Position numbers and translations under genes: made by a program
Shown here: piece by piece, positions 1-16,024 of the stretch
Position numbering within the stretch: position 1 is the first letter of the stretch
How the letters are laid out: every line of letters begins with the position of its first letter
Notes under the pieces: model-generated
The model's input: the letters and a program-made list of their open reading frames with translations, nothing else
What the model was told of the DNA's origin: nothing
Database searches by the model: none
Origin: an uncultured bacterium
Lineage (GTDB): Bacteria > Planctomycetota > UBA1135 > GCA-002686595
Direction of reading: 5' to 3'
DNA: 64,000 nucleotides
NCBI GenBank assembly: GCA_943787795.1
Contig: CALSNU010000001.1
Span: 1,376,001-1,440,000 of the forward strand

Positions 1-333
1 GAGGTCTTCCTGCACACCCCGGTCACGGCCGCAGATGGCGGCTTCGAGGGCTTCGGGATCGTCTACCTGGAGGCGGCGGCGGCCGGGACGGTGGCCATCG
101 GGACCCTCGACTCGGGCGCCGAGGACGCCATCGTGGACGGCGATTCGGGGTGCCTGGTGGCGCAGGAGGCGGACGCCGTCGAGTCGGCGCTGCGTGAGGT
201 CCTCTCGGACGACGGCCTGCGCTCGCGGCTCGCCGCGGGCGCGCGCGCCCACGCGGCGGCCTCCTCATGGGACGAGAACGCCCGGCGCGTCCTGGAGATC
301 TACGACGCCGTCGCAGGTGGGGGGGCGAAATGA
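1..333 (+). CDS. GT4 glycosyltransferase, C-terminal part (5' truncated by window edge)
   Basis: Frame 1 is open from base 1 and reads EVFLHTP...EGFGIVYLEAAAAG...SWDENARRVLEIY, the GT4 E-x7-E motif; stop at 331-333. Confidence 0.85.
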   Translation, partial: EVFLHTPVTAADGGFEGFGIVYLEAAAAGTVAIGTLDSGAEDAIVDGDSGCLVAQEADAVESALREVLSDDGLRSRLAAGARAHAAASSWDENARRVLEIYDAVAGGGAK

Positions 334-1580
334 ACGTCCTCTTCTTCTGCGAGATCGCCGACCCCGGCGTGGGCTCCAGCGTGCGGCAGATGTACGGCCT
401 CGCCCGGGAGCTCCGGGCACGGGGGCACAAGACGGCGGTGGTGGCCACGGTCCGAGAGGCCGCGGACGCCACGCCGACGGTGATCGAGGGCATGACGGTC
501 TTCCGGCTGCACTCGGACTATCCGCTGCGCTGGAGGGGCTGGGTGTCCCTCCGCAATCGCGCCATCGAGCGGCCCCTCGCCGCCGTGCTGGGGGAGTTCC
601 GGCCGGACGTTGTCCACGCCCACCTGGTGCACACGCACCTGGGGTACCACTCCTTGACCATGGCGAAGCAGGCGGGGGCGCGGGTGATCTTCACCTCCCA
701 CGACGCCATGACGTTCTGCTATCAGAAGCTCACCTGTTTCCACGGCGGCGAGGCGCACGGCGGCGAGCTGGATGACGTGGTCGCCCGGGCGAGCAAGTGC
801 ATCCCGTGCCAGCGCTTCCGCTTCCGCCCGGGCCGCAATCGACGCATCAAGGAGGTGCTGGAGCGGGACGTGGACCGCGTGACGGTCGTGTCCGATGAGC
901 TGGGGCGCGTGATGCGGGCCAACGGGCTCCCCGTCCACCGGACCGTGCACAACGCGCTGGAGCTCAGCGAGGCCCCGGAGGCTGCGGCGGTGGAGGCGTT
1001 CCGCTCACGCCACGGCCTCACGGGCTGCCAGGTGCTGGCGATCGGCGGCCGGCTTCACGAGCAGAAGGGCGTGGGCAAGCTGCTGGAGATGCTGGCGCTC
1101 CTCCGCCCCGAGTTCCCAGGGGTGCGGCTCATCGTGATGGGCCGCCGGGAGACCTACGACGGCGAGTTCAGGCCCCATGCGGCGAGCCTCGGTGTGGAGG
1201 ACCTGGTGGTCCCCACCGGCTGGCTGGGCCCCGAGGAGCTGCCGCTCGCCTACGCCGCCGCGGACGTCTTCGTGACGCCCTCCCTGTGCTTCGACACCTT
1301 CGGGATCGTGAACCTCGAGGCCATGGAGCAGCGCCGGCCGGTGGTGGCCACCCGCTTTGGCGGGTCCATGGAGGTCGTGGAGGACGGGGTCTCGGGCTTC
1401 ATCGAGAACCCATTTGATGTCCCCGCCTACGCGGAGCGCATCGCGGGCCTCCTGCGGGACGGCGAGCTGCGGACGAGGATGGGGGAGGCCGGGCGTGCGG
1501 CGCTCGTGGAGCGGTTCTCCATGGGGAGGCTCGCCGACGAGTTCCTGGACGAGTACACGGCCAGCGAAGCGCCCCAGTGA
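330..1580 (+). CDS. GT4 family glycosyltransferase
   Basis: ATG at 330 overlaps the upstream stop (ATGA); RPDVVHAH, EQKGV and DTFGIVNLEAM motifs. Confidence 0.9.
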   Translation: MNVLFFCEIADPGVGSSVRQMYGLARELRARGHKTAVVATVREAADATPTVIEGMTVFRLHSDYPLRWRGWVSLRNRAIERPLAAVLGEFRPDVVHAHLVHTHLGYHSLTMAKQAGARVIFTSHDAMTFCYQKLTCFHGGEAHGGELDDVVARASKCIPCQRFRFRPGRNRRIKEVLERDVDRVTVVSDELGRVMRANGLPVHRTVHNALELSEAPEAAAVEAFRSRHGLTGCQVLAIGGRLHEQKGVGKLLEMLALLRPEFPGVRLIVMGRRETYDGEFRPHAASLGVEDLVVPTGWLGPEELPLAYAAADVFVTPSLCFDTFGIVNLEAMEQRRPVVATRFGGSMEVVEDGVSGFIENPFDVPAYAERIAGLLRDGELRTRMGEAGRAALVERFSMGRLADEFLDEYTASEAPQ

Positions 1581-1798
1581 CGTGTCAGGCCGTCGCAGGG
1601 TAGGCCCTGCGTGCATCAACCTGGGAACTCACCGCTCCTGGGGCGTGAATAAGCCGATACTCGGTACGAGTCCAGAGTGTCGACGGCTCTCTCCTGAGCG
1701 TCGTAGACTTCAGCCCCATCCCATCGGTTGGAGTTGAGGCTCTCCCGGCCTCCAGGATATTCCTTATCGCCCGCGCCACCCCGCAGGGGTCGCCCACG

Positions 1799-3205
1799 AT
1801 GCAGAAGACACTTCTCACCTACGTCAAGCCGCACGTCCAAGAGGATCCCCTTTCGATGATCCTCGGCATCGGCTACCTCGGCGCCCAGATGGAGCGCGAG
1901 GGACTCCCGATCGCCCTGCATGACGAGCGCATCGGCACCGACCAGGAGATGAAGGCCGCGATCGACGCCAATGACATCATCGGCTTCAGCGCGCTGACCC
2001 CGAACATCCGCCGCGCGATCGCCTGGGCGAAGTACGCCAAGGAGCAGGGCAAGACCACCGTCATGGGTGGACCGCACGCCTCGGTAGACCAGGGCGTCTT
2101 CCTCGACAGCGGCCACTTCGACTACGTCCTCAAGGGCGAGGCGGAGCACACCCTCCCGCAGCTCATCCGCGGGATCGAGGGCAACGATGACAAGGCGCTC
2201 CAGGATGTGGCGGGGCTCGCCTCCATGCGTGAGGGCGAGCTCTGGGTGGACAACCCCGCGCCGCCGCTCATCAAGAAGCTCGACGAGCTCCCGATTCCCG
2301 CCCGGCACCTCCTGCCGATGGAGTCGTACTTCAAGAACAACCCCGAGCACCTCTGCTACATCTTCACCACGCGCGGATGCCCCTTCAAGTGCATCTTCTG
2401 CCAGAAGGAGCTCACGGGCCGCGGCTTCCGGGTCCGCTCGACCGAGGCGATCGTCGACGAGCTCGAGCACATCATCAAGACCTACGACCCGGGCGTGATC
2501 CTGTTCGTCGATGAGATCCTCACGCTCAGGAAGAAGCGCATCCACGAGATGTGCGACGAGATCATCCGCCGCGGGCTGAAGTTCGAGTGGGTCGCCAACA
2601 CGCGCGCCGACTGCGTGGACTACCCGCTGCTCAAGCACATGCACCGCGCCGGCTGCCGCCGGATCTACTACGGCTGGGAGTCCGGCTCCCAGCGCATGCT
2701 GGACGTGCTCAAGAAGGACCTCACCCCCGAGGTGATCGTCAACGCCGCCAAGATGACCCGCCGCGCGGGCATCTGGGCCAAGGTCTACCTGATCGTGGGT
2801 TCGCCCGGCGAGACGCCTCAGGACGTGGCGGAGACCGAGAAGGTCCTCCGGCTCGCCGGCCCGGACCTGATCCGGATCTCGGTGTTCAACCCGCTGATCG
2901 GCACCGAGTCCTGGGACAACTACCAGGCCTCCATCGACATCTCCGACCTGTCGGAGAACTACGTGTCGTCCAACCGCTCCGGCTACAAGCACGAGCACTT
3001 CAGCCAGATCGAGCTGGAGGAGCTGCGCAAGCGCATGGTCCGCTCCTACGAGCAGTGGTACTACTCGATGCCGCAGCGCCTGCGCCGGGTCTACGAGCGC
3101 GCGCTCTACTACATCGAGAACCCGCAGCACGGACGCAAGCGCGTCGGTCGCGCGGTGGGCCTCGTGCCCGCGCCCCAGCGTCACGTCGTGACGAGCCACC
3201 ACTGA
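1799..3205 (+). CDS. B12-binding domain radical SAM protein (class B methyltransferase-like)
   Basis: N-terminal GGPHAS / GEAE cobalamin-binding motifs, then TRGCPFKCIFC (CxxxCxxC) and GWESGSQRML. Confidence 0.9.
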   Translation: MQKTLLTYVKPHVQEDPLSMILGIGYLGAQMEREGLPIALHDERIGTDQEMKAAIDANDIIGFSALTPNIRRAIAWAKYAKEQGKTTVMGGPHASVDQGVFLDSGHFDYVLKGEAEHTLPQLIRGIEGNDDKALQDVAGLASMREGELWVDNPAPPLIKKLDELPIPARHLLPMESYFKNNPEHLCYIFTTRGCPFKCIFCQKELTGRGFRVRSTEAIVDELEHIIKTYDPGVILFVDEILTLRKKRIHEMCDEIIRRGLKFEWVANTRADCVDYPLLKHMHRAGCRRIYYGWESGSQRMLDVLKKDLTPEVIVNAAKMTRRAGIWAKVYLIVGSPGETPQDVAETEKVLRLAGPDLIRISVFNPLIGTESWDNYQASIDISDLSENYVSSNRSGYKHEHFSQIELEELRKRMVRSYEQWYYSMPQRLRRVYERALYYIENPQHGRKRVGRAVGLVPAPQRHVVTSHH

Positions 3206-3245
3206 GCGCGGCGGGCGAGCCGCGCAAGGCTCGCACGGGAACGAA

Positions 3246-3281
3246 ACGGGCGGCCCCGCAGATCACTGCGGGGCCGCCCGT
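3246..3281. terminator. Strong hairpin between convergent genes, likely bidirectional terminator
   Basis: Perfect 16-bp stem ACGGGCGGCCCCGCAG-ATCA-CTGCGGGGCCGCCCGT with AA upstream and GTT downstream. Confidence 0.7.
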
Positions 3282-3382
3282 GTTGATGTGGCGGTCGCTG
3301 CGGGGCGACCTCTGCGGGCCCGGCCGTCGGTGCCCCCGGCCGTCGGTGGAGCTAGGCCCCAATGGGGCGTGCGCTCGAGCGA

Positions 3383-5050
3383 TCAGCCGAGCCGCGCGGC
3401 CACGCCGTCGACCAAGGCTTGCTCTCTGCGCCGGGCCTCTTCCTCCATGGCCCCGGCCTCGGCGAGGAACCGGGCCTTGGCGGCCTCATCGGTCAGGTCC
3501 TGAGCATTGATGCGCACGTTCAAGCCCGCGCCGAGCACGGCCGTCCGGGTGCAGAGGGCGCCCACGGCAGCGTCCGACAGGGAGGCCTCCATGCCCTTCT
3601 CTGCCATGGCCTCGCAGATCCCCATCGCGTCGAGGGAGGTACGCATGACGCGCAAGGGGACCTCGATGGCGTAGCGGGTGGCGTCCTGGATCGCCGCGGC
3701 GCGCTGGGCCTCGTCGGCCTTCCAAGCGGCCATGATCCGGTTGAAGGCCTCCGTGTCCTCGTCCACGAGCTCCAGCAGGGTGTCGTGGCAGCGCTTGCCG
3801 GCCACGGCGACCTCGGAGAACTCCTCCCAGCGGTCGTCCCAGCCGCGCTTGTGGCTGGAGAGGTTGGCGACCATGGTCCCGAGGGCCGCGCCGAGGGCGC
3901 CCACCGCAGCGGCCACCGAGCCGCCGCCAGGGGCCGGGGACTCGGAGGCGGTCTCGTGGACGATCTCCTCCACGGTCATGTCCACGAGGCGCTTGCGGGC
4001 GCCGTCGCGGATCGCGTACTCGATGACTCGCTTGCTCGGGTCGAAGGGACTGAGCTCGTCGAGCCCCATGGTGCGGACGGCGATCTTGATCAGCTCGGCG
4101 TCGCTCACGCCCAGCGAGCGGCCCTGCTTGGCGAGGTAGTGACGGCCCGCATCGAGCAGGACGGCGAGGGGCACGAGGCCGACGATCTCCGAGCCGGTGA
4201 CCCGGATGCCGCGGGCGGCGGCGCGCGCCTCGCAGGCGTCGAAGGCCAGGTGGACCGGGGTCACCGAGAGGTCGGTGAGGTTCATGGAGATCTGAGCCAC
4301 CCCGTACTCCTCGATGAACCAGCCGATGCCCTTGCATGCCTTGAGCAGCCCGGGCTGCCACACGGGGTCGCCGGCGGCGTCGCGCACCACCTCGCCAGTG
4401 AGCGGGTCCGGCTCGCGCTTGATGCGCCCCTTCTCCCGCACGTCGAAGGCGATGGCGTTGGCGCGCCTCGACGAGGTGGTGTTCAGGTTGACGTTGTAGG
4501 CCACGAGGAAGTCGCGGGCGCTCACGGCGGTGGCCCCGGTCCTCGGCTGGAACGTGGCGGGCCCGAAGTCGGGCTTCCACTCTTCGGTGCCCACGCGCGC
4601 CGCGAGGCCCTCGTACTCACCGGCGCGAACCACCGCCAGGTTGCGACGCCCCTCGGAGAAGGCCGCGTTCTCGTAGCAGTAGATGGTCAGGCCGACCTCC
4701 TCGCCGAGCCGCCGGGCGAGGGTGCGAGCGTGCTCGACCGTCTCCTCCATGGTGATCCCCGAGACCGGCACCAGGGGGCAGACGTCCATGCCGCCGAAGC
4801 GCGGGTGCTCGCCGCTGTGGCTCGACATGTCGATCCGCTCGGCGCCGACCCTGGCGGCCTGGACGGCGGCCTCGATGACCGGCTCGGGTTCACCGACGAA
4901 GGTGAACACCGTGCGGTTGGTGGCCTTGCCCGGGTCCACGTCGAGGAGTGTGACCCCGTCCACGGCGCGGACGGCGCTCGAGATGGCCTCGAGGACCGCA
5001 GGGTCGCGACCCTCCGAGAAGTTGGGGACGCATTCGATGAGCTTGGCCAT
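3383..5050 (-). CDS. ftcD: Bifunctional glutamate formiminotransferase / formiminotetrahydrofolate cyclodeaminase
   Basis: Starts MAKLIECVPNFSEGR; HPRFGGMDVCP; C-terminal SPAPGGGSVAA cyclodeaminase domain. Confidence 0.93.
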   Translation of the reverse strand: MAKLIECVPNFSEGRDPAVLEAISSAVRAVDGVTLLDVDPGKATNRTVFTFVGEPEPVIEAAVQAARVGAERIDMSSHSGEHPRFGGMDVCPLVPVSGITMEETVEHARTLARRLGEEVGLTIYCYENAAFSEGRRNLAVVRAGEYEGLAARVGTEEWKPDFGPATFQPRTGATAVSARDFLVAYNVNLNTTSSRRANAIAFDVREKGRIKREPDPLTGEVVRDAAGDPVWQPGLLKACKGIGWFIEEYGVAQISMNLTDLSVTPVHLAFDACEARAAARGIRVTGSEIVGLVPLAVLLDAGRHYLAKQGRSLGVSDAELIKIAVRTMGLDELSPFDPSKRVIEYAIRDGARKRLVDMTVEEIVHETASESPAPGGGSVAAAVGALGAALGTMVANLSSHKRGWDDRWEEFSEVAVAGKRCHDTLLELVDEDTEAFNRIMAAWKADEAQRAAAIQDATRYAIEVPLRVMRTSLDAMGICEAMAEKGMEASLSDAAVGALCTRTAVLGAGLNVRINAQDLTDEAAKARFLAEAGAMEEEARRREQALVDGVAARLG

Positions 5051-5240
5051 TTCGGTGCAGGGTCGCCCAGGTGGGCGCGATGGGGGGCCGCCGGGAGGGG
5101 CGGTGGGGCGGAGAGTCCGACCCGCGGGCGCGGGGCGGGCGACCGTTCTATCAGACCGATCCCGGCGCGTCTCGCCGGTAGGTGCGGTCGAACTCACCTT
5201 CGGACCGCTACCATCTCGACACGGCCACGCCCGACGATCC

Positions 5241-6326
5241 ATGACCCAGCCTGATTCTTCCGCAAGCTTCCGCTCCGCATCCACCGAGGACCGGGAGGCG
5301 CAGGCCGCCCTGTTCGACCGCTGCTTCAGTCGTGAGGACGGAGGGGAGGTGCTCCCCTGGCGCTACGACCAGGGGCCCCACGGGGCGGCGCTCACCACCG
5401 TCGTGGACGGGGATGAGGGCCTGCTGGCCAGCTACGCCTGCGGCCCGCGTCGCCTCGCGGGGGACCGCGAGGTGCTCGTGGGGGAGACGGGGGACGTCAT
5501 GACCGCCCCCGATGCCCGCGGCGGTGGCCTCTTCTCAGGGCTCGACCGGGCCACCATGGCGGCCGCCCGGGACGCCGGCTGGCCCGTGGTCTTCGGGCTA
5601 CCCAACCGCGCCTCGGCCCACATCTTCGTCCGGGACCTCGGGTGGGAGGAGGTCGGCCAGCTGCGCCCCTGGACGTTCGTCCTCGTGGGGGACGCGGGAG
5701 CCAGGGCTGAGCGGATGAAGGTCAGCCGCCTGGCGGCGGCCACGGTGGCCTGGACCGCGTGGCGAGGGACCATGGCCCGCGGGCGCCTGCGCAAGCGCTT
5801 CTTCGCGCGCTGCAACGTCGTGCCCATCGCGCGCTTCAAGCCCGAGGCCGACGCGGTCGCCGAGGCGGTCGCCGCGCGGCACCCCTGGTTCATCCGTCGG
5901 GACCACGAGTACATGAACTGGCGCTTCGTGGACGCGCCCTCCGGCCGGTTCCGATGCCACGGCGTCTACCAGCCGGACGGGAGCATGTGCGGGTGGTGCG
6001 TCGTGCAGCTGCCGGAGCGCGGTGAGACCGCGGGCTACGTGGTGGACCTCGTGGCCGTCGACGACGTGGCCTTTGCAGCCGCCCTCGAGGCCGGGCTCGG
6101 GCACCTGCGCAAGGCCGGCGCCTCCGTGGCGCGGGCCCACGCGGTCGTGGGGTCGGGCTGGGAACAGGAGCTCAAGGGCTCCGGCTTCCGGCCCTCCAAG
6201 GCCGACGACGTCCGACCCATCATTATGCACGTCCTGGACGAGGGGCACCCGATCTCTGAGGTGGCGCGGCAGCCGTCGAAGTGGTTCTGGACCGACGCGG
6301 ACCGTGACGCGGAGTTGATCGGCTGA
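5241..6326 (+). CDS. GNAT family acyltransferase (EPS-locus type)
   Basis: WRY..GPHG, GDVMTAPDARGGGLF (acyl-CoA motif A), VFGLPN, RDHEYMNWRF. Confidence 0.8.
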   Translation: MTQPDSSASFRSASTEDREAQAALFDRCFSREDGGEVLPWRYDQGPHGAALTTVVDGDEGLLASYACGPRRLAGDREVLVGETGDVMTAPDARGGGLFSGLDRATMAAARDAGWPVVFGLPNRASAHIFVRDLGWEEVGQLRPWTFVLVGDAGARAERMKVSRLAAATVAWTAWRGTMARGRLRKRFFARCNVVPIARFKPEADAVAEAVAARHPWFIRRDHEYMNWRFVDAPSGRFRCHGVYQPDGSMCGWCVVQLPERGETAGYVVDLVAVDDVAFAAALEAGLGHLRKAGASVARAHAVVGSGWEQELKGSGFRPSKADDVRPIIMHVLDEGHPISEVARQPSKWFWTDADRDAELIG

Positions 6327-6337
6327 CCGCCGGCGTC

Positions 6338-7423
6338 GTGGGTCTCAAGCACCGGATCAAGGCGGGCCTGCGCGGCCTGTACGCCCGTGTCCTTTGGGGC
6401 ACGGGGCTGCACCGGGTTGTGGACCGATTCTCCCGGCCGCGTCTGCTCGTGCTCTATGGTCACTGCGTCGATCAGCCGAGGACCAACGGCTCCCTCGACG
6501 CGGACATGAAGATCTCAGGGGCCCGCCTCGAGAAGATCCTCGAGACGCTGGGTCGAAGGCACGACCTGGTGACCCTTGGTGAGGGGCTCGAGCGGTTGCG
6601 CAGCGGGCGCGCCGGTCGCTCGATGGTCGCCCTGACCATGGACGACGGGTACCGCGACAACCTCCACGACCTGGTGCCGCTGCTCGAGCGCACGGGGGCG
6701 CGCGCGACGGTCTTCCTCGAGGGAGGCGCCGTGGCCTCGCGCGAGCTCCCCTGGCTCCACGCGCTCGGGTGGCTCGTGGGCCGGCTCGGGGCGACCGAGG
6801 CAGCCGCTCAGGTCGCGGCCAGCCTCGGAGAGGTGCCGGGATCACCGGTTGGCGTCACGGATGCGGGGACGCTGAAGCGCCGGCTCAAGTACGACGCGGA
6901 CCCCGACCGTCGGGACGCGGCGCTGCAGGCGCTGGTCGAGGCGGAGGGAGGAGACCCCGTGCAGATCGTCGACGACCTCTACCTCTCCATGGACGAGGCC
7001 CGGGCGCTGGCAGCGGCCGGCCCCGTGGAGGTGGGCGGGCATACGGCGCATCACCCGGTCCTCGCGAGGCTCGGCGTGGACGCTCAGGAGCGTGAGATCT
7101 CGGGCGGCGCCGCCCTGCTCAGGGAGCTTCTCGACGAGGAGGTCTCCGAGGAGGGCCGGGCGCCCCTCGGGGCCTCGGGGCACGCGTTCGCCTACCCCTA
7201 CGGTCGGCGCTGGGACATCGGTGAGCACAGCCCTGGCGTGGTCGCGGCCGCAGGATACACCTGCGCCGTCACGACCCATGCGGGGGTCAACCATCGGTCG
7301 ACCGATCCGTACCTGCTCAAGCGCTGGCCGATCCACGACGGCACGAGGCTGCACGAGGTGGGTGTGGAGGCCTCGGGCGGCTTCGAGCTGCTGCGCCGTC
7401 TCGGGATCGACCTCGTGGAGTGA
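6338..7423 (+). CDS. Polysaccharide deacetylase (CE4/NodB-like)
   Basis: TMDDGYRDN, GHTAHHPVL (HxxxH) and FAYPYG motifs. Confidence 0.9.
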   Translation: MGLKHRIKAGLRGLYARVLWGTGLHRVVDRFSRPRLLVLYGHCVDQPRTNGSLDADMKISGARLEKILETLGRRHDLVTLGEGLERLRSGRAGRSMVALTMDDGYRDNLHDLVPLLERTGARATVFLEGGAVASRELPWLHALGWLVGRLGATEAAAQVAASLGEVPGSPVGVTDAGTLKRRLKYDADPDRRDAALQALVEAEGGDPVQIVDDLYLSMDEARALAAAGPVEVGGHTAHHPVLARLGVDAQEREISGGAALLRELLDEEVSEEGRAPLGASGHAFAYPYGRRWDIGEHSPGVVAAAGYTCAVTTHAGVNHRSTDPYLLKRWPIHDGTRLHEVGVEASGGFELLRRLGIDLVE

Positions 7424-7476
7424 ACACGTGGAGTGAACTCGTGGAGTGACCTCGTGGAGTGAACGCGGGGAGTGAA
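7412..7476. repeat. 13-bp tandem repeat x5 (CTCGTGGAGTGAA consensus) starting at the deacetylase stop codon
   Basis: Units at 7412, 7425, 7438, 7451 and 7464 with 0-2 mismatches each. Confidence 0.9.
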
Positions 7477-7525
7477 CTCGCAGACTCAAGGCGCGGAGCG
7501 AGGCGCTATATCCCACCGGGCGGGG

Positions 7526-7585
7526 CCACACCGCGCTGGACCACACCGCGCTGGACCACACCGCGCTGGACCACACCGCGCGGAC
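7526..7585. repeat. 15-bp tandem repeat x~4 (CCACACCGCGCTGGA)
   Basis: Three perfect copies plus one degenerate copy, intergenic. Confidence 0.9.
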
Positions 7586-7656: not shown

Positions 7657-7785
7657 TCAGTGGGTCTCGTACCCGTCGGGGCCGGAGTAGGCCCCGCCGC
7701 CCGAGGTGTAGAGGTAGACGGCCGCGGCCACGAACACCGCCACGGGGACGGCGATCCAGATCCAGTTCTCGCGAAGAAAGCGCAT
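7657..7785 (-). CDS. 42-aa single-TM microprotein, divergent SxtK/DUF5989-like (absent from ORF track)
   Basis: Manual translation MRFLRENWIWIAVPVAVFVAAAVYLYTSGGGAYSGPDGYETH*; GC3-rich host-like codons; TACTGT -10-like hexamer upstream. Confidence 0.75.
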   Translation of the reverse strand: MRFLRENWIWIAVPVAVFVAAAVYLYTSGGGAYSGPDGYETH

Positions 7786-7858
7786 AGGGTGGGGGTCTCG
7801 GTGAGAGCCACCACAGTATCCCCGGCTCGGGCGCCTGGTGGGGATACACTGCTGGCAG

Positions 7859-8986
7859 ATGAAGCGGATCCTGTCTCGACTTGCCCTCTCCGCGGGGGTC
7901 TTTCTCGCCCTGCTCGGTGGTACGGAAGTGGTGCTGCGCGCCCAGGGCTATGGGGCCATCCCCTCCGTGTGGTTCGATCCAGAGGTCGGCACGCGCTTCC
8001 ACCCCGGCCAGACCCGCCAGATCCTCGCCGCCGGCGGCGTCTTCATGCACTCGGCTGAGATCAACGACCTCGGCTTCCGCGGCCGACTGCCGGACCCCGA
8101 GCTCGACGGCGACGGCGGCCTGCGCCTGGTCTGCCTGGGCGACTCGTTCACCTTCGGCTGGGGCGTCGAGGACGCAGACACCTACCCCGTGCAGCTTGAG
8201 GCTGCCCTCGAGGAGCTCCTGGCAGCCCGCGCTGCCGGTGATACGGCGGACTCCGGGCCGCGGCGGAGCCCCGTCGGTGCAGAGGTGCTGAACGTCGGGC
8301 TGCCCGGCTACAACACCTGGCAGGAGCATCGGCTCTACGAGAAGCTCGTTCGACCGATGGCTCCGGATGTGGTGGTCCTGGGTTGGTACCTGAACGACCT
8401 CGACCCGCTGAGCTACGGGGTGACCGGCACCCTGGCGCCCCTCGATCACCCGCTGGCGGGCACCGCGCTGCTGGACTACTGGGTCCGCAAGCTCCGCAAG
8501 AAGTACCCCAAGTTCGAGTTCGAGGGCTTCGACCAGGCGGCCGCGCAGGAGATCAAGCCGTACTACGACAAGAACCGGCCGCTGGTGGAGCACAACAGCG
8601 GCCACCCGGAGGCGAGGCCCTACGTGGAGCGCAACCTCGCGGACCTCGGCGCCCTGCTCGATGACATCAAGGCCGACGGGGTGACCCCCGTGCTGACCAT
8701 CTTCCCGTCGGTGGGCCAGGTCGACGCTCTCAAGGCGGCGCGGGCCGACAAGCCCGCCGCGGAGTACGAGGCGGACCTCGCGATCATCGCGCGCATCCAG
8801 CGCGACCTGACCGAGTTCGTCGGCCTCAAGGGGGTCGCCGTCGTGGACCTCCTCGTGCCGTTCATGGACAGCGAGGTTCGGCCCTACGGTGAGGTGGACC
8901 AGAGCCACCCCAGTGTGCACGGGTACGGGATCGCCGCATGGGCCGTGCTCGAGGCGCTCGTGGCGGGCGGCCTGCTCGACCGCTGA
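7859..8986 (+). CDS. Membrane-anchored SGNH/GDSL family protein
   Basis: N-terminal TM helix; LGDSFTFG, NVGLPGY, YLND and DQSHPS blocks. Confidence 0.88.
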   Translation: MKRILSRLALSAGVFLALLGGTEVVLRAQGYGAIPSVWFDPEVGTRFHPGQTRQILAAGGVFMHSAEINDLGFRGRLPDPELDGDGGLRLVCLGDSFTFGWGVEDADTYPVQLEAALEELLAARAAGDTADSGPRRSPVGAEVLNVGLPGYNTWQEHRLYEKLVRPMAPDVVVLGWYLNDLDPLSYGVTGTLAPLDHPLAGTALLDYWVRKLRKKYPKFEFEGFDQAAAQEIKPYYDKNRPLVEHNSGHPEARPYVERNLADLGALLDDIKADGVTPVLTIFPSVGQVDALKAARADKPAAEYEADLAIIARIQRDLTEFVGLKGVAVVDLLVPFMDSEVRPYGEVDQSHPSVHGYGIAAWAVLEALVAGGLLDR

Positions 8987-9125
8987 TCCTCCGCGGCGGA
9001 GACCTCTCTCCGGCGGTGGCCACCCCGCGGCGGCGGCTCCCCCGATCCTGCGGCTACTCCGATGCGGTGACACTGCCGATCCGGCGCCACTGCCGATCCG
9101 GTGGGGCTGGCACGATGGAGGGCCC

Positions 9126-9461
9126 TCAGCGGGGCCGCAGGAGCGACCCGTGCATCCGGGTCACGAAGTCACCGACCTCGGCCGAGCTGGACTCGAGGTG
9201 GCTCGTGAGCTCCTCCAATGGGCGCTCCTCCCAGTAGCCACGCAGGATCAGGGCGTGCATGGCCTGGACCTGGGTGCGCGGGTCGTCCGGGGTCCGTGCC
9301 CGCTCGAGGAGCTCCTCTGTGGTGGGGGCGCCACTCAGGCCCAGGGTGATCGTGATCGCCGCGGCGGCGCCCAGCCCCAGGGCGAGCAGCCACTGCACCG
9401 GGCCCTCGCCGTGCGGCTCGCTTGGGGCGACCTGACCTTGAGGGTCGTCTTCGGGGCTCAT
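9126..9461 (-). CDS. Hypothetical single-TM protein (111 aa)
   Basis: MSPEDDPQ...WLLALGLGAAAAITITLGL...; ATG overlaps the stop of the upstream GT-C gene (TGATG). Confidence 0.6.
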   Translation of the reverse strand: MSPEDDPQGQVAPSEPHGEGPVQWLLALGLGAAAAITITLGLSGAPTTEELLERARTPDDPRTQVQAMHALILRGYWEERPLEELTSHLESSSAEVGDFVTRMHGSLLRPR

Positions 9462-10975
9462 CAGAGCTCCTCCAGGGATGCGAGGATCGGGGCGACGGCG
9501 AGGGTCCAGCTCCAGAGGAGCAAGCCGAGGGCGGCGACGAAGAGTGATCGACGGAAGAGCCCGCGCGCTGGAGGGCAGCGCAGGCTCGCCAGCGCAGCGG
9601 CGGCGGGGACGATCAGCAGGGCCTCGCCCGGCGCCCGGAAGCGCGACATGGCCACGACCAGGGCGAGGGGCGCGGTGGCCGCGCATGCGGCGGCGACGAG
9701 CCCCGCGGCTCCCGGAGAGAGCGGCACCATGATGGATCCGTAGGCGGCGAGCAGGAGGAGGGCCAAGACCATGGCGATGGAGACCAGGGTCAGGGGGACG
9801 CTGAACGGCCTGGAGGTCAGGACGCTGCAGTATCCGCCGGTGGCCTTGACGCCCGCGACCTCCGGGTCGGGCGGAGGCATGCGCAGGTAGCGCGTCATGT
9901 AGGACAGCGGCGTGAGCAGGTCGGCCACCTTCACCGCGCGCGTGCGGAGGAAGAAGCCCGTGTGGGCCCTGATGAACGCCCGTCCCGTGGCGACCGCGAG
10001 CCGGTTTCGCTCGGCGACGTCCGGGAGGAACTGGAACCGCCACTGCTCCATGTCCGCGGGCGGCTCCAGGAGGCTCGCGCGGAGCGAGGCTCCCGGTGCG
10101 CCGGCATCGGGGACGTCGAGCCCGACGAGGTCGAAGTTGATGTAGTCGCGGTTCCAGCCCATGTAGGCGTTGAGGCCGGCGGTCCGTCCGAGGAGCTGGA
10201 GGGACCCCAGGTCCGCGCTGGCCCGGGCGGACCAGGGCGCGATCGTCATGGCGGCGGCGCCCAGGAAGAGGACGGCCCGGCGGACTCCCGTGGACCAGCG
10301 CCGCGACTCCAGCTGAGCAGGACGGCCGAGGGAGCAGACGCCCCACAGGCCCAGGGCCCCGAGCCAGAAGAGGCAGGCCTCCTTGGTGAGGCAGGCGAGG
10401 CCGACGGCGAAGCCCGCGCCCACGAGCGCGGCGGTCCCGCGGTGCCCGCGCAGCTCCCCGGCGGCCACCGCCAGCAACAGCGCGCAGGCCGGGAGCAGGA
10501 GGGCGATGGCGAGCCCCTCGCTGAGGAGCACGTGGGCGAAGGGGACCAGCGGCAGGTACAGGGCGGCGACCCACCCCGCCAGTCGACCCGCGCGCTCCGA
10601 GTGGGCGCGGGTGGCGAGCACCATGAGCCACCCGCAGGACCACACCGAGAGGAGGGTCAGGACCACACGGGCGGCGGTCTCCCCAGCCTCGCCGAAGACC
10701 GACACGCAGGCGGCGATCAGCGCCGGGTGCAGGGGGGGCCACTGCCCCGTGTAGGCGCCGAGCTCGGACCAGGCGCGCCCGAGCCCAACGTAGGCGGGTT
10801 CGTCCCCGCGGAAGGCGCCGCCCGCCGCGGACATGAGCCACAGGCCCCGGACCACGGCTGCGCACAGGAGTGGCGCGAGCCAGCCCCCCGGGAGCCAGCG
10901 TGCCTGGCTCGGGTGCTCGGTCGGCGCCGCCACGGGGGGCGGCTCCGCGGGGGCGATGTTGGGGCTGGGCCTCAT
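9461..10975 (-). CDS. Polytopic GT-C glycosyltransferase (ArnT/PMT-like)
   Basis: GDEPAY acidic motif after TM1, WPPLHPALIA, LLSEGL, C-terminal RFRAP; many TM segments. Confidence 0.75.
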   Translation of the reverse strand: MRPSPNIAPAEPPPVAAPTEHPSQARWLPGGWLAPLLCAAVVRGLWLMSAAGGAFRGDEPAYVGLGRAWSELGAYTGQWPPLHPALIAACVSVFGEAGETAARVVLTLLSVWSCGWLMVLATRAHSERAGRLAGWVAALYLPLVPFAHVLLSEGLAIALLLPACALLLAVAAGELRGHRGTAALVGAGFAVGLACLTKEACLFWLGALGLWGVCSLGRPAQLESRRWSTGVRRAVLFLGAAAMTIAPWSARASADLGSLQLLGRTAGLNAYMGWNRDYINFDLVGLDVPDAGAPGASLRASLLEPPADMEQWRFQFLPDVAERNRLAVATGRAFIRAHTGFFLRTRAVKVADLLTPLSYMTRYLRMPPPDPEVAGVKATGGYCSVLTSRPFSVPLTLVSIAMVLALLLLAAYGSIMVPLSPGAAGLVAAACAATAPLALVVAMSRFRAPGEALLIVPAAAALASLRCPPARGLFRRSLFVAALGLLLWSWTLAVAPILASLEEL

Positions 10976-11004
10976 CAGTGATCGCAAGCTACACGATGCC
11001 GCGC

Positions 11005-12426
11005 TCAGCGCAGCGCAGAGAGCGTCTGTTGAACGCCCTCGATGGACGGAACCCACAGCAGGAGCAGCCCGGCGCCGATCACGGTGGCCGCTCGCCGGCG
11101 CGTCTTGCCGTCGTCGGCCCGAGTCCCGATCAGCGCGAGGGCCGCGAACCCGATCAGGAGCGGGAGCGCCGGAAGCCGGTAGCGGCTCATGCCGTTGACG
11201 AGGGCGGAGAGGACGACCACGCCGCTGACGCTCAGGAGAAGGCCGCGGTGGGCGGCGCTCGCCTCCATGGCCCACCAGCCCCGGAGCGCGAGCAGGAGGA
11301 GCGCTGGGACCATGAGGACCGCGCAGGCCGCGAAGGCCAGACGGGCGCCGGCGCCCCCGAGCGGCGGGCCAGGCGACGCGAGCCGAAGGCTGCGGACAGG
11401 GAAGGAGAGCGGGCTCAGCAGGTCCACGAGCTCGACGACGCGGCTCCGAAGGAAGAAGACCGGGTGGCGCGCGGCATAGCGCAGGCCCTGGGTCACATTC
11501 GCCCGGGCTCGCGCTGCGGGCGCGCCCTGACTCTCCGCGCTCCAGGCCTCGGGCGCCGGACCGCGGATCGCCGCTCGCAGGGCGCCGGGGGCCCGGGCAG
11601 GGGCGCCGCCGAGTCCGGCGAGGTCGTAGTTCACGTCGTGGGCATTGAGCCCGACGTGAGCGCTACCGCCGGTGGAGATCGCGATGGGCACCAGCTGCCC
11701 ATGCACGGCGGCGTTGCGCAGGGTCCACGGGAGGATCGTCGCGAGCGAGCAGGCCACCATCGTCAGCGCGAGGGAGGCGCGCGACGCGCCGCCGGCGGCT
11801 CCGTTCCGTGCGAGCCACAGGCCGAGGATGGGAACGAAGAGGAGGCTGCTCTCTCGGACGAGCGCCGCGAGCCCCAGGAGCACGCCCGCGCCCGCTGCTA
11901 CTCGCAGCGAGGCCGCGCTGGAGCGGCGGCTCGCGGCCGCGAGCAGGGCGAGGGCCGGGGTGAAGAGCGCGAGGTGGAGCGGCTCGGAGTAGAGGAGCCC
12001 GGCGAAGCCAGCGAGGGGCAGGTAGAGCGCGGCGATCCACGCGGCGCAGGCGCCGCCGCGGCGGCCGCCGATGATCGCGGCGAGCGCGGCGATCCAGGCG
12101 ACGTTCCACAGCCCGAGCACGACCTGCAGCCCCCGAAGGGCCGCGGTGGAGGCGTCGCCCAGGAGGCCGCCGAGGACGGCGATGAGGGCGGGGTACCCGG
12201 GGGCCCAGATGCCCTCATAGGTGCCCTCGAGGCGCCATCGCTCTCCGAGAAGGAGATAGGCGCGCTCGTCGCCCGCGGGGTCCGTCCCACTGAATGCGAT
12301 CGCCACCGCGATCCGCACGCAGGCGGCCGCCAGGAGCGGCAGCAGCAGGGAGGGCCAGAGGGGACGCTGAAACGAGCCCTCAGCCGCGTCCTCCCTCACC
12401 GCATCGTCCTCTGAGCTGGCATTCAT
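11005..12426 (-). CDS. Polytopic GT-C glycosyltransferase (ArnT/PMT-like), paralog of 9461-10975
   Basis: GDERAY, WAPGYPALIA, LYSEPL, PWTLRN, RYRLP. Confidence 0.78.
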   Translation of the reverse strand: MNASSEDDAVREDAAEGSFQRPLWPSLLLPLLAAACVRIAVAIAFSGTDPAGDERAYLLLGERWRLEGTYEGIWAPGYPALIAVLGGLLGDASTAALRGLQVVLGLWNVAWIAALAAIIGGRRGGACAAWIAALYLPLAGFAGLLYSEPLHLALFTPALALLAAASRRSSAASLRVAAGAGVLLGLAALVRESSLLFVPILGLWLARNGAAGGASRASLALTMVACSLATILPWTLRNAAVHGQLVPIAISTGGSAHVGLNAHDVNYDLAGLGGAPARAPGALRAAIRGPAPEAWSAESQGAPAARARANVTQGLRYAARHPVFFLRSRVVELVDLLSPLSFPVRSLRLASPGPPLGGAGARLAFAACAVLMVPALLLLALRGWWAMEASAAHRGLLLSVSGVVVLSALVNGMSRYRLPALPLLIGFAALALIGTRADDGKTRRRAATVIGAGLLLLWVPSIEGVQQTLSALR

Positions 12427-12477
12427 CGGTGCGAGCGGCGCGGCGGGCCGGGCAGGTGGTGCGCCGGCCGCGGATGC

Positions 12478-14007
12478 TCAGAAGAGCGTGTAGATGAAGG
12501 GGGCCACCAGCGGCGAGGAGGCCGCCACGACCAGCAGGCTGCCGACGCTGAGCAGCACGCTCAGCAGCGGCATCAGGTACCAGTGCCCGCGCAGGGTGAA
12601 GGACCGCAGAAGCTCCGCGATGGTGCCAATCCGGTCTCCGAGCTTGAACAGGACGAAGGTCAGGATGGTCAGCAGGAGGCCGAGGATCGTCAGCTGGGAG
12701 GCCTGGGGTGGGAGCGCCTCCACGAGCCACGTCACGCCGAGGCCCGTGCTGAAGACCACGGCGAGGAGGGCGGCGACGCTGCCGAAGCCAACGAGCGCGC
12801 TCTCGTCCGGATACGTCCGCCTGTATAGGGTTCCGAGCGCGCCCGTCAGAGCCAGATACCAGAGGACCCAGACGGGCACCTGGCCGCTGCTCTTCACGGG
12901 TCCTGTGGGGAGAGTCTGCGACGCGCCCTCGCCAAGGGGAGGAAGGAGCTTCGCGCCTTCCAGCGCCCCGTGGAGGGAGACGGCGAGCGCGACGTTGCCG
13001 TCGGCGTTGAGGTGGAAGTCCCGTCGGTAGTAGGGCGGGGCCTCTGCCGCGAAGGACTCGATGGCGACCAGCGGGTCGAAGACCATGGCGCCCGTCGCCC
13101 GCGCGGCCTCGATGAAGAGCGCATGGGGCCGCGCCGGGTCCAGGGGGGCGCCGGCGACCGCGGGCGGGGCGCTCGCCTGGGTCTTCGAGGGGATCGGGCA
13201 CACGGCGAAGCGCGCGCCGAGGGCCTCGCAGCGCGCTGACATGGCGGCGATCAGGGCGCGGGTGCGAGTCTCGGCTTCTAGGACCGCAGGCGGCGGGTCC
13301 GTCAGCCGTGAGGAGAGCTCTGCGGAGAGCGTGATCTCTCCCGACGTGATGAGGGGCACGCTCGGGGCGCCGCGGAGTCGATACCAGGCCTCTCCGAGGG
13401 CGGAGCGGCGGCTCCAGTGCCGGGCTGGTGGCGACGCGAGGCTTCGCTCTACGAGGACGCCTTCGCTGTCGTAGAGGGGCTTGTCCTGGCCGAGGTAGGT
13501 GGGGCTTTGATTCCACCAGATGTCGTTCTCGTAGGCGAAGTAGACGACCAGGTCAGGGGCGACCGCCTCACCGTTCAACTCGAGCCATCGCAGGGACTGA
13601 TCGGTGGAGTACCCCTGGGTCCCCGCGTTCATGATCTCCACCGGGCGGCCCTCGATCTGCAGGGCCCGCTCGAGCTGGTCCACGAAGAGGTCCTCGCGGT
13701 CCACGGTGTACCCGACCACGAAGGAGTCCCCGAGAAAGAGCGCGCGCCGGGTGCCCTCAGGCGCCGGTGCGAGGGCGTCGTAGTCGTCCCGGAGCCCCGC
13801 GCCGTCGTTGGTGAGCGTGACGTCGTACTCGCCGGTCGAGCGCTCGATGGTCTTGCCGGGGGTCTTCCGCCAGCCGAGCTCTGGGTCGAACTCCGTGTTG
13901 ACCACCGTCGGCGTGAAGCCGAGCGCGCGGAGGCCGAGCTCGGTGACCCCGAGGGCGATGCCGGCGGTGACGAGCAGCGCGAGGATGACGTTGAGGGTCT
14001 TCATCAC
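12478..14007 (-). CDS. SGNH protein fused to C-terminal TM helices and an SxtK/DUF5989-like tail
   Basis: LGDSFVVG, NAGTQGY, YEND, DFHLN; ends ELLRSFTLRGHWYLMPLL...SPLVAPFIYTLF. Confidence 0.88.
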   Translation of the reverse strand: MMKTLNVILALLVTAGIALGVTELGLRALGFTPTVVNTEFDPELGWRKTPGKTIERSTGEYDVTLTNDGAGLRDDYDALAPAPEGTRRALFLGDSFVVGYTVDREDLFVDQLERALQIEGRPVEIMNAGTQGYSTDQSLRWLELNGEAVAPDLVVYFAYENDIWWNQSPTYLGQDKPLYDSEGVLVERSLASPPARHWSRRSALGEAWYRLRGAPSVPLITSGEITLSAELSSRLTDPPPAVLEAETRTRALIAAMSARCEALGARFAVCPIPSKTQASAPPAVAGAPLDPARPHALFIEAARATGAMVFDPLVAIESFAAEAPPYYRRDFHLNADGNVALAVSLHGALEGAKLLPPLGEGASQTLPTGPVKSSGQVPVWVLWYLALTGALGTLYRRTYPDESALVGFGSVAALLAVVFSTGLGVTWLVEALPPQASQLTILGLLLTILTFVLFKLGDRIGTIAELLRSFTLRGHWYLMPLLSVLLSVGSLLVVAASSPLVAPFIYTLF

Positions 14008-14014
14008 GGACGGT

Positions 14015-15805
14015 TCAGGACACCATCTGGGTCACGGAGTCGCCGTCGTGGCGCAGGTGGAAGGTCGTCTCGGCGATCTTCTTCTTGGCGCTCGCCTCGA
14101 CGATGAAGTTGTTCATGAACAGGAAGTCCATGCCCGACAGCGAGAACGTGTTGAAGGCGTGGGCGGGCGACTCGACGATGGGCTCGCCCTTGAGGTTGAA
14201 CGAGGTGTTCATGATCACCGGCACGTCGGTGAGCTCGCCAAAGCGCTCGATGATGCGGTGGTAGGCCGGGTTGGTCTGGCGGTAGACCGTCTGGAGCCTG
14301 CCGGAGCCGTCCTCGTGGGTGATCGCTGGCAGCACGTCGCGCTTCTCCTCGCGCACGGGCGCCACGTAGAGCATGAAGCGCGCGGGCCAGTGCCGCTCGG
14401 GCTCGGGGATGTCAAAGAACTCGTCCGCGCGCTCCTCGATCACCGACGGCGCGAAGGGCCGGAAGGACTCGCGGAACTTGATCTTCGAGTTGAGCTTCTC
14501 CTTCATCTCCATGCGCCTTGGGTCGGCGATGATGGAGCGGCTGCCCAGGGCCCGTGGACCCCACTCGCAGCGGCCGCGCATCCAGCCGCAGACGTGGCCC
14601 GACTCCAGGGTCCGCGCAACGAAGTCGAAGAACTCTTCGTCGTCCGAGATCTTGCGATAGGGGATGTCGTTCGCCTCGAGGAACGACTGGATGGAGTCGT
14701 CCCCGTGCTCGCTGCCCAGGTACGCGTGCTCCAGGGCCGGGCCCCGCGGTTGGTCGAGCAGGTGGTTGTAGGCCCAGTAGGCGGCGCCGGCCGAGCACCC
14801 GTCGTCGCCGGGAGCGGGGTGGATGTAGACGTCCTCGAAGGGCCCCTCGCGCATCAGCTTGTAGTTGGCCACCGAGTTCAGGGCCACGCCGCCGGCGAGG
14901 CAGAGCTTCTTGAGCCCCGTGATCTCGTGCAGGTGCGTGATCATCTTCAGCAGGATCTCCTCGGTGACCCGCTGGATGCTCGCGGCCATGTCGCAGTAGT
15001 ACGGGTCTAGCGAGGTGTCCTGATGCTTCGGGTCTCGGCGTGGCCGGCCGAAGTGCGCCTCGAAGAGCGGGCTCAGGGTGTCGTTGGTCGAGTGGTGGTA
15101 CTTGAAGTACCGCATGTCGTGCCAGAGTGACCCGTCCTCGGCGACATCGAGGAGCTTGTAGATCTCGTCGCAGTACTTCGGCTCACCGTAGGGGTGCATC
15201 CCCATGAGCTTGTATTCGCCCTCGTTGATCTCGAAGCCGCAGTACGCAGTGAAGGCAGAGTAGAGCAGGCCGAGGGAGTGCGGGAAGCGCATCTCCTTGA
15301 GGACCTCGATCTTGTTCCCGCGACCGACGGCCATGGTGGAGGTGGTCCACTCACCCGCGCCGTCGACGGTGAGGATCGCGGCCTCCTCGAAGGGCGACGT
15401 GTAGAAGCTCGACGCCGCGTGGGAGACGTGGTGGTCCGCGAAGAGGAACTTGGAGCGCGGCACCTCGAGGCGCTTGCTCATCATCGACTTGATCCAGAGC
15501 TTGTCCGAGATCCAGCGCTGCATGGACTCCCGGAAGACCGCTGCGCTCTTCGGGAACGTGGCCATGGCGGTGAGCAGCATGCGCTCGAACTTCACGAAGG
15601 GCTTCTCGTAGAAGACCACGTAGTCCACGTCGTGGATCGTGATGCCACCCTGCTTCAGGCAGAACTCGATGGCGAGTTCGGGAAAGCCTGAGTCGTGCTT
15701 CTTGCGGCTGAAGCGCTCCTCCGCGGAGGCCGCCACGAGCACACCGTTCTTCACCAGTGCGGCGGCAGAGTCGTGGTAGTAGAAGGAGAGGCCGAGGACG
15801 TTCAT
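14015..15805 (-). CDS. Carbamoyltransferase (NodU/CmcH/TobZ family, SxtI-like)
   Basis: YHDSAA, EERFSRKKH, HHVSHAAS, TVDGAGE, AGGVALN, EWGPRALGSRS, KFRESFRPFAPS, NTSFN. Confidence 0.96.
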   Translation of the reverse strand: MNVLGLSFYYHDSAAALVKNGVLVAASAEERFSRKKHDSGFPELAIEFCLKQGGITIHDVDYVVFYEKPFVKFERMLLTAMATFPKSAAVFRESMQRWISDKLWIKSMMSKRLEVPRSKFLFADHHVSHAASSFYTSPFEEAAILTVDGAGEWTTSTMAVGRGNKIEVLKEMRFPHSLGLLYSAFTAYCGFEINEGEYKLMGMHPYGEPKYCDEIYKLLDVAEDGSLWHDMRYFKYHHSTNDTLSPLFEAHFGRPRRDPKHQDTSLDPYYCDMAASIQRVTEEILLKMITHLHEITGLKKLCLAGGVALNSVANYKLMREGPFEDVYIHPAPGDDGCSAGAAYWAYNHLLDQPRGPALEHAYLGSEHGDDSIQSFLEANDIPYRKISDDEEFFDFVARTLESGHVCGWMRGRCEWGPRALGSRSIIADPRRMEMKEKLNSKIKFRESFRPFAPSVIEERADEFFDIPEPERHWPARFMLYVAPVREEKRDVLPAITHEDGSGRLQTVYRQTNPAYHRIIERFGELTDVPVIMNTSFNLKGEPIVESPAHAFNTFSLSGMDFLFMNNFIVEASAKKKIAETTFHLRHDGDSVTQMVS

Positions 15806-15814
15806 GGTGGGCGG

Positions 15815-16024
15815 TCAGTCCTGGTGCCGGGCGGCGGCCACGTCCTCGTTCGTGCTCTCCCACTTGGTCCAGTTCCCCGCTTGGCGCCGCTTGAGGTGCA
15901 GCGGGTCGCAGACGCGCTGATACACGAGCGCGACGGGGCCGAGCACACCGTAGTAGAGGGCCGTCAGCAGTAGCCTCGAGACCATGCTGCCGAAGCGTTC
16001 CGTGAACTGAGCGAGGGCTTGCAT
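15815..16024 (-). CDS. Short SxtJ-like membrane protein (69 aa)
   Basis: SRLLLTALYYGVLGPVAL...DPLHLK...W pattern typical of the SxtJ C-terminal half; directly upstream of the carbamoyltransferase. Confidence 0.75.
   Translation of the reverse strand: MQALAQFTERFGSMVSRLLLTALYYGVLGPVALVYQRVCDPLHLKRRQAGNWTKWESTNEDVAAARHQD

Follow-up and report, generated by a model that had tools for sequence, protein, structure and literature searches.

A carbamoyltransferase-SxtJ-DUF5989 module in a planctomycete and a candidate tyrosine-tail carbamoyl relay to SGNH enzymes

The C-terminal FXYXXF motif is established as an acyl shuttle for pairs of MBOAT and SGNH proteins. In the Dlt (DltB, DltX, DltD) and PatA/PatB systems a single-pass or fused FXYXXF tail, predicted to face outward, accompanies a membrane-anchored SGNH protein with a Ser-His-Asp triad; the word carbamoyl does not occur in that account (PMC12148441). 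Here we describe a locus that shares these features, located in a stretch of 64,000 nucleotides (the window) of an uncultured planctomycete (assembly GCA_943787795.1, contig CALSNU010000001.1, positions 1,376,001 to 1,440,000). It encodes a short SxtJ protein, a class III carbamoyltransferase (CT) and an SGNH enzyme fused to a DUF5989 domain (Table 1). Unlike Dlt and Pat, the module contains no MBOAT, its donor would be a soluble CT of Kae1/YrdC fold on the other side of the membrane, the proposed group is carbamoyl supplied via an adenylate and not an acyl group from a thioester, the tail is fused to the SGNH protein and not to the donor, and the partner SGNH proteins mostly keep the glycine of block II. 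As the MBOAT is missing, the module would by analogy resemble Dlt/Pat in its outer half without being a member of that group. We propose that the CT carbamoylates the tail tyrosine and that the carbamoyl group is then handed on by the SGNH enzyme to an acceptor outside the cytoplasm, a relay to which we assign a probability of about one half; the comparison of modules from which it derives is well supported, and the relay itself is our reading of it.

The same four gene types form sxtI-sxtJ-sxtK-sxtL of the cyanobacterial saxitoxin clusters (PMC2679770, PMC2684587, PMC5132012, PMC3037375), where sizes of 1839, 405, 165 and about 1280 bp compare with about 610, 135, 49-55 and 350-450 residues at the canonical loci of our survey. 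Published passages on these clusters treat SxtJ and SxtK as unknown helpers and SxtL as a proposed decarbamoylase (PMC2679770, PMC3037375). In Lyngbya wollei sxtI is truncated, sxtL is absent and no carbamoylated forms are reported (PMC3037375), which fits either that view or the one put forward here; this account gave no support to the idea that a membrane AT3 enzyme is the acetyltransferase replacing sxtI in Lyngbya. The sxtIJK(L)-type layout, adjacent genes for CT, SxtJ and a 50-residue membrane peptide, often with a GDSL/SGNH gene, was found in our survey. We take SxtK to be DUF5989, an assumption for which only size and gene order agree. Unlike the sxt clusters, the window has a halved SxtJ and a tail fused to the SGNH protein, and no other sxt gene was seen, none having been looked for. 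Our comparison suggests a different interpretation of these gene types, as carrier and transferase.

The window CT shares with TobZ, GdmN, NovN and NodU the two-domain fold, the catalytic histidine and the iron ligands; unlike these enzymes, which transfer directly to a small molecule and are not reported to require partners (PMC9633730), it has a clade-specific basic motif at the acceptor site and an extra helix. A precedent for the inner half of the relay is HypF, a class II carbamoyltransferase which carbamoylates the C-terminal Cys of HypE (PMC9633730), that is, a carbamoyl-adenylate-forming enzyme loading the C-terminal residue of its partner. Unlike in the proposed relay, HypE is a soluble enzyme that accepts the group on a Cys thiol, with neither membrane nor SGNH protein involved. 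The carbamoyl group of HypE is subsequently dehydrated to cyanide. In the crocagin cluster, to which CgnD and CgnI belong, knockout of the CT yields the des-carbamoyl product, and the SGNH protein CgnD shares this cluster with the CT and a carbamoylated product; unlike the window proteins, CgnD is soluble and is assigned as a slow leader-peptide protease (PMC10070186). A search of the open-access literature turned up no suggestion that a tyrosine carries a carbamoyl group, and none of a function for DUF5989.

The tyrosine is the least variable residue of the DUF5989 tail. It stands at position -4 in 147 of 149 tails, with the flanking phenylalanines in 140 and 138; of the two exceptions, one belongs to a frameshifted copy, of which it is half, and in the other the tyrosine is at -3. 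As the tail profile itself includes the tail, a second collection was made with the N-terminal and transmembrane (TM) pattern alone and no tail requirement, and it contained 54 free micropeptides at 40 loci of close relatives, the window peptide ending GYETH among them. All 54 have a tyrosine within the last five residues (36 at -4, 17 at -3 and one at -5), and the phenylalanines and other positions vary. An alignment in which the tyrosine is invariant (A2) had been pre-filtered on that residue and is not counted. An earlier, sequence-only reading of the window had made this tyrosine the carrier and staked that role on its conservation among homologues, and on this point it holds. DUF5989 occurs in 99 of 201, 72 of 301 and 22 of 101 genomes of the three phylum samples described below and in at least 7996 protein clusters; its profile found no real match among PDB sequences, and a tblastn search of plasmids with the tail found none. 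In close relatives including L060, L054, L036 and L199, two to four unannotated single-TM peptides of 41-48 residues with variable tyrosine-containing tails follow the fusion gene in tandem; they are possible adaptors for different SGNH partners.

The neighbourhoods of DUF5989 were collected by a PF19451 search of samples of 301 genomes (centred on Alphaproteobacteria), 201 Planctomycetota and 101 genomes (centred on Verrucomicrobiota). They numbered 139: 78 from the first sample, 42 from planctomycetes, picked for score and long contigs, and, from the third sample, 19 of its 22; several came from one genome in some cases. A filter (score above 30 bits and tyrosine at -4) dropped four, leaving 135, and neighbours were called with our own profiles within 5 kb. 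A CT was present at 112 of these loci, SxtJ at 107, an SGNH protein at 70 and an MBOAT at 2, and the 112 with a CT include all 107 with SxtJ and 64 with an SGNH protein. The metagenome sample of 80 loci gave a similar arrangement: all 19 loci of at least 8 kb have CT and SxtJ, 14 an SGNH protein, 2 an MBOAT and 1 a GT-C protein. Plasmid records with the same module come from Methylosinus, Sinorhizobium meliloti, Paludisphaera and a rhodobacter. As controls served 30 CT loci without DUF5989 nearby, which span 8 to 18 kb, so that some are shorter than the DUF5989 loci compared with them. Three of them have SxtJ, with DUF5989 elsewhere in their genomes, and SGNH proteins were found at 2 of the 27 that lack both, one being the locus L228 discussed below. 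Among motif-picked proteins, no SGNH family was found within the best five Pfam families for 45 of 56 at SGNH-less DUF5989 loci and for 18 of 18 at control loci. The conserved unit thus appears, with good support from gene neighbourhoods, to be CT, SxtJ and DUF5989, three of the five gene types whose co-occurrence the earlier reading had wished to see surveyed.

The tail is also found away from the membrane. Among the best 80 viral CT loci, 30 encode a peptide with a PFIY-like end, found by its pattern, and none of these peptides is hydrophobic; no match to the pattern occurred among 4574 opposite-strand open reading frames (ORFs). None of the 80 loci has SxtJ, DUF5989 or an MBOAT; SGNH proteins, called by our own profile, are present at 14, 0 of 16 being anchored. 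A bacterial counterpart lies at L228:10057-10236 (G285:C16), where a CT belonging to the DUF5989 clade is followed by a soluble 59-residue ORF ending FVYPH and then by an SGNH protein without anchor; judged by its genes, it is a soluble version of the module without SxtJ. Location therefore co-varies, a membrane tail going with SxtJ and an anchored SGNH protein, and a soluble tail with an unanchored SGNH protein and no SxtJ.

The CT links the two forms. The window enzyme matches PF02543 (E 1.5e-84) and PF16861 (E 3.6e-67), the Kae1-like and YrdC-like domains, and the NovN, GdmN and TobZ chains with E values of 1e-101 to 1e-77; to the NodU equivalog NF041651 it scores 157 bits, below the curated cut-off of 1000. 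As had been read from the letters, it carries no signal and its motifs are intact. It has no TM or other hydrophobic segment either. His11, His125, His129 and Asp148 align with GdmN positions 27, 133, 137 and 156, of which the first is the catalytic base and the others are iron ligands (PMC9633730). These four and Asp334, the remaining iron ligand in the window CT, are invariant in 126 aligned homologues. A clade motif in the window enzyme consists of K68, K72 and R75. Together with D38 these residues are common to 26 sampled membrane-type CTs and the peptide-linked viral CTs (K72 in 22 of 23, R75 in 22, K68 in 17 and D38 in all 23, the 23 coming from 25 loci picked among the 30 bearing a peptide), and in 26 control CTs they occur in 15%, 31%, 12% and 4%, respectively. 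By alignment, K72 and R75 map to the helix lining the acceptor pocket of GdmN, so that the predicted acceptor pocket is conserved together with the PFIY peptide. Residues of about 88-105 are absent in 23 of 23 peptide-linked viral CTs; in the membrane type they form a helix with conserved W98 and K102, and the L228 CT has the length of this region without these two residues. As SxtJ, the TM anchors and this CT helix occur only with a membrane-bound peptide, they would belong to the membrane form of the module.

In a tree of 78 CTs (midpoint root, SH-aLRT support only, without bootstrap) 48 of the 49 rows linked to DUF5989 group together in a single 52-row clade with SH-aLRT of 97. CTs of distant samples are mostly 44-58% identical to the window protein and SGNH partners 17-30%, as would be expected if the CT sees one acceptor and the SGNH proteins many. 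In the first sample, the PF16861 match of most DUF5989-linked CTs is lengthened by an insertion of about 20 residues (570 versus 510 nt), which in the window CT is only about 4 residues long.

As a PFIY peptide stands beside phage CTs that have no SxtJ, and both CT types share the acceptor-site motif, the tail would belong to the CT and not to an MBOAT. The earlier reading had noted that the window has neither MBOAT nor AT3, which is true of the window; elsewhere the genome has three MBOATs, each with its own FxYxxF-type tail (3/3), and AT3 genes at two places far away. Near DUF5989, all five complete MBOATs likewise carry a tail of their own, two more being cut by contig or locus ends. That the module is independent of MBOATs and its tail linked to the CT is therefore well supported by these comparisons, in agreement with the earlier suggestion of a tail fed without an MBOAT. 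At L197:8899-11670 a DUF5989 gene directly precedes an MBOAT with its own tail and an SGNH gene, with no CT in 18 kb.

The 69-residue ORF upstream of the CT has no Pfam match, including SxtJ (PF19588), which does match a canonical member. A profile built from 41 full-length SxtJ proteins of distant loci only aligns it to positions 75-135 with 35 bits, the best of 500 shuffles reaching 4.9. The label SxtJ given to it earlier thus appears justified for the C-terminal half, to which this short protein corresponds by profile match. It contains one hydrophobic helix with a conserved proline, followed by a basic tail with D-P-L and W. SxtJ has been seen only with the membrane-anchored form of the tail. 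That the three extra TM helices of the fusion protein are the missing N-terminal half of SxtJ is unsupported, as profile comparison with full-length SxtJ gave a probability of 2.5%.

The fusion protein consists of an N-terminal TM anchor, the SGNH domain, three further TM helices and the DUF5989 part ending APFIYTLF. In its AlphaFold2 model (pLDDT 94, pTM 0.90; tail block 65) a single TM helix precedes the SGNH domain and four separate this domain from the tail, so that both are predicted to lie on the same, outer side; in the model this shared side suits a hand-over from tail to SGNH domain. The domain keeps Ser95, Asn161, Asp330 and His332, and sequence and model together predict a membrane-anchored SGNH enzyme with intact triad on the side of the tail. 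Among 94 partner SGNH proteins the serine is present in 92 and the histidine in 88, the remainder being gaps, and 68 of 77 have a hydrophobic segment before the catalytic serine. The nearest solved structure is CgnD (Z 21.6, rmsd 3.8 A over 243 aligned residues), the next reaching Z 16.5; PatB (Z 13.4) and OatA (Z 12.2) do not stand out from generic esterases in rank, and DltD, AlgJ and AlgX are not among the best 50 VIA structure matches, a result still compatible with kinship. At six planctomycete loci (L204, L205, L207, L066, L068 and L072) DUF5989 is fused to three extra TM helices and not to an SGNH domain, and no SGNH protein was found in the stretch fetched. In Saltatorellus ferox (L013:7784-16817) the SxtJ-CT-fusion block occurs twice, 5.5 kb apart and with identical CT proteins, which is either a recent duplication or an assembly repeat.

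Based on these comparisons we propose the following sequence of events. The cytoplasmic CT would make carbamoyl-AMP from carbamoyl phosphate and ATP, a reaction established for the family, the residues for which are intact here. Its acceptor would be the tyrosine of the PFIY tail and not the final substrate, yielding an aryl carbamate. SxtJ and the extra CT helix may hold the CT at the inner face and, the former by its proline-kinked helix, shape a thinned or grooved patch of membrane into which the tail of 11-14 residues could dip and return; this is the weakest step. The anchored SGNH enzyme, here fused to the tail, would then take the carbamoyl group on its serine and transfer it to a hydroxyl on an exported molecule, such as an envelope glycan. 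The choice of final acceptor would lie with the SGNH partner and not with the CT, and a single CT may serve several acceptors by way of additional free tail peptides and SGNH paralogues. In its full form, with a swinging-arm tyrosine helped by SxtJ, no membrane-embedded catalyst and interchangeable SGNH proteins as true O-carbamoyltransferases, this would be a third way of modification beyond the inner membrane, a view we hold tentatively and with some doubt.

Several observations weigh against the relay. Lysine and arginine average 3.3 before the TM helix of DUF5989 and are absent after it in 126 of 126 sequences, a charge bias that predicts an outward tail in all of them, and the CT is cytoplasmic. 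How the CT reaches such a tail is the main gap in the scheme as predicted, as the enzyme depends on ATP and lacks an export signal, and the residues that SxtJ conserves are structural only, with no histidine or other catalytic residue among them. We found no precedent for a membrane-crossing tail step, and the linkers of many free paralogues are acidic, which should make flipping difficult. The amphipathic character of the extra CT helix is only moderate (moment 0.42; best-window means 0.69 versus 0.64 in controls). When the CT and the 55-residue DUF5989 part were predicted as a complex, SxtJ being left out, the scores were 0.23 and 0.21 against a mark of 0.32, which speaks neither for nor against the relay. 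A soluble peptide and an SGNH protein occur together at only 3 of the 80 viral loci, by a profile trained on membrane forms. As kin are not independent, our counts describe and do not test, and conservation across the clade is partly ancestry. The entire PFIYxxF motif is conserved, so that the tyrosine could be a docking residue. Unsubstituted aryl carbamates, moreover, can break down to cyanate. As to the SGNH enzymes, block II glycine, which marks a hydrolase-like state and is replaced in PatB and one OatA (PMC12148441), is kept in 67 of the 94 partners including both of the window, neither of which has the PatB/OatA transferase signature (serine or asparagine in its place), and CgnD is reported to be a slow protease with a poorly nucleophilic serine (PMC10070186). 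The earlier proposal of a relay with SxtJ as membrane partner and SGNH O-carbamoyltransferases is thus upheld in part, by the restriction of SxtJ to the membrane form, the retained triad and the predicted common side, and runs into difficulty with a cytoplasmic CT and an outward tail.

The main rival explanation involves docking without a relay: SxtJ and DUF5989 would anchor or activate the CT at the inner face, where it carbamoylates a lipid-linked sugar or small molecule before export, and the SGNH protein would be an optional esterase that edits or removes the group. Published accounts of sxtIJK and sxtL take a similar view. Direct action on the final substrate is the rule for all characterised class III CTs (PMC9633730), 48 of the 112 CT-linked loci have no SGNH protein within 5 kb, the retained block II glycine agrees with an esterase, and the topology problem vanishes if contact of the CT with DUF5989 is limited to its cytoplasmic helix. 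SxtL has been proposed as a decarbamoylase (PMC2679770, PMC3037375), although in the published passages this role is only a proposal. Docking leaves unexplained, however, why PFIY is conserved at an outward C-terminus, why the same PFIY ends soluble peptides beside soluble CTs, why two CT types from very different neighbourhoods have acceptor-pocket residues in common and why the tail is fused to an SGNH domain, and we regard it as rather unlikely.

It is less probable still that the tyrosine is carbamoylated and nothing crosses the membrane, the tail forming a re-entrant hairpin or the topology being inverted, so that the relay, or a direct transfer to an acceptor linked to lipid, would occur within the bilayer or at its cytoplasmic face. 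The 11-14 residues that follow the TM helix in canonical DUF5989 contain no lysine or arginine and are mostly hydrophobic, and the soluble versions must work in one compartment, yet basic residues precede the TM helix of DUF5989 as well as the SGNH anchor of the window, the fusion puts SGNH domain and tail on the same side, and a helix of 12 residues cannot span the bilayer. Only a slim chance is left to DUF5989 being a DltX-like acyl shuttle for an MBOAT or AT3 protein encoded elsewhere, the CT being merely co-selected. The motif fits FXYXXF, the genome does have MBOATs, 3 of 139 genome loci and 4 of 80 metagenome loci have an MBOAT nearby, and 23 of the 135 loci have no CT within 5 kb; against this, every complete MBOAT examined has its own tail, the viral loci have none, and three of the CT-less loci belong to genomes with CT and SxtJ elsewhere. 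Inspection of 23 loci without a near CT or with odd tails gave no consistent other donor; their neighbours were a single MBOAT, which has its own tail, a single pair of radical SAM proteins, and GT-C or SGNH proteins. At L148:6451-11990 DUF5989 stands between two radical SAM/SPASM genes and a TMEM260-like GT-C gene, with no CT, possibly another donor system.

If the proposed relay is true, the chemistry of the tyrosine shuttle extends from acyl to carbamoyl groups without an MBOAT or AT3 catalyst, O-carbamoylation of envelope molecules would be widespread and overlooked, the sxtJ, sxtK and sxtL gene types acquire testable roles, and the view that class III CTs always act directly is in question. 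It would probably explain several small proteins now without an assigned role in a gene trio that is very common and unstudied. Should the group cross without a membrane catalyst, the module would come close to a new kind of system, which we consider conceivable and by no means assured; SxtL, taken as a decarbamoylase, and CgnD, taken as a slow protease, would then be mis-assigned or bifunctional.

Table 1. Genes and features of the module and its surroundings in the window
Feature	Position	Strand	Remarks
Short SxtJ, 69 residues	15815..16024	-	C-terminal half of SxtJ (by profile match); proposed membrane partner of CT
Class III (NodU/TobZ/GdmN) carbamoyltransferase (CT), 596 residues	14015..15805	-	PF02543 + PF16861
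SGNH-DUF5989 fusion, 509 residues	12478..14007	-	PF13472, residues 91-338; PF19451, residues 461-509
DUF5989 (SxtK-like) part of fusion	12478..12627	-	Amphipathic helix, TM helix, PFIYTLF tail; Tyr506 is the proposed carbamoyl carrier
GT-C-like (PMT_2-like) membrane protein 1	11005..12426	-	Variable passenger, outside the conserved module
GT-C-like membrane protein 2	9461..10975	-	Paralogue of GT-C-like protein 1, 38% identity
112-residue single-TM protein	9126..9464	-	Overlaps stop of second GT-C-like gene
Second membrane-anchored SGNH, same family, without tail	7859..8986	+	Ser96, Asn179, Asp347, His350
Free 42-residue single-TM micropeptide ending GYETH	7657..7785	-	Diverged DUF5989 paralogue

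The run from SxtJ through CT and fusion gene to the two GT-C-like genes, with intergenic gaps of 9-51 nt, is as it had been described, with an intact CT, an SGNH protein ending FIYTLF and all genes on one strand. The second SGNH gene and second tyrosine-tailed peptide mentioned with it are both present, the SGNH gene being on the opposite strand and divergent from the micropeptide, the tail of which retains the tyrosine and has lost both phenylalanines. In the window genome, which is 85% complete, there is a single CT, and six SGNH genes are related at E below 1e-22. It also encodes a third, orphan tail peptide of 38 residues ending GYAIR on another contig (G000:C2:248436-248549; L005, L227), with no CT, SxtJ or SGNH gene near.

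The GT-C label is less secure, as neither GT-C-like protein has a Pfam match; the neighbours of the first in the ESM Atlas are rich in PMT_2 (score 0.99), the second has a weak STT3 match (E 0.0015), and both are polytopic with G-D-E after the first TM helix. The claim that the acceptors are glycans built by these two enzymes is not supported by the survey: of 46 close relatives with long flanks, only 5 have GT-C genes after the module, and among 139 distant loci such genes are near 13. Genes for polysaccharide deacetylase, GNAT, radical SAM and GT4 proteins on the opposite strand are the commonest neighbours, present in 26, 25, 15 and 14 of the 46 close relatives, and glycan genes in general are frequent and varied neighbours. 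An envelope glycan is therefore the likeliest class of acceptor, with the products of the window GT-C proteins not singled out. In the window the plus-strand genes at 267-7423 (GT4, B12-radical SAM, GNAT and polysaccharide deacetylase) converge on the module and may be the source of the real acceptor. Short direct repeats with units of about 12-16 nt lie in the intergenic region at 7420-7580, after the deacetylase gene.

A sigma-70 promoter was looked for and none was found. RNA contigs from four marine runs of one study cover the region in patches, too patchily to show transcription. Contigs of two RNA runs connect window position 9361 with 12070, hinting at a relative with a shorter GT-C region, although a repeat or another organism could also give rise to this junction.

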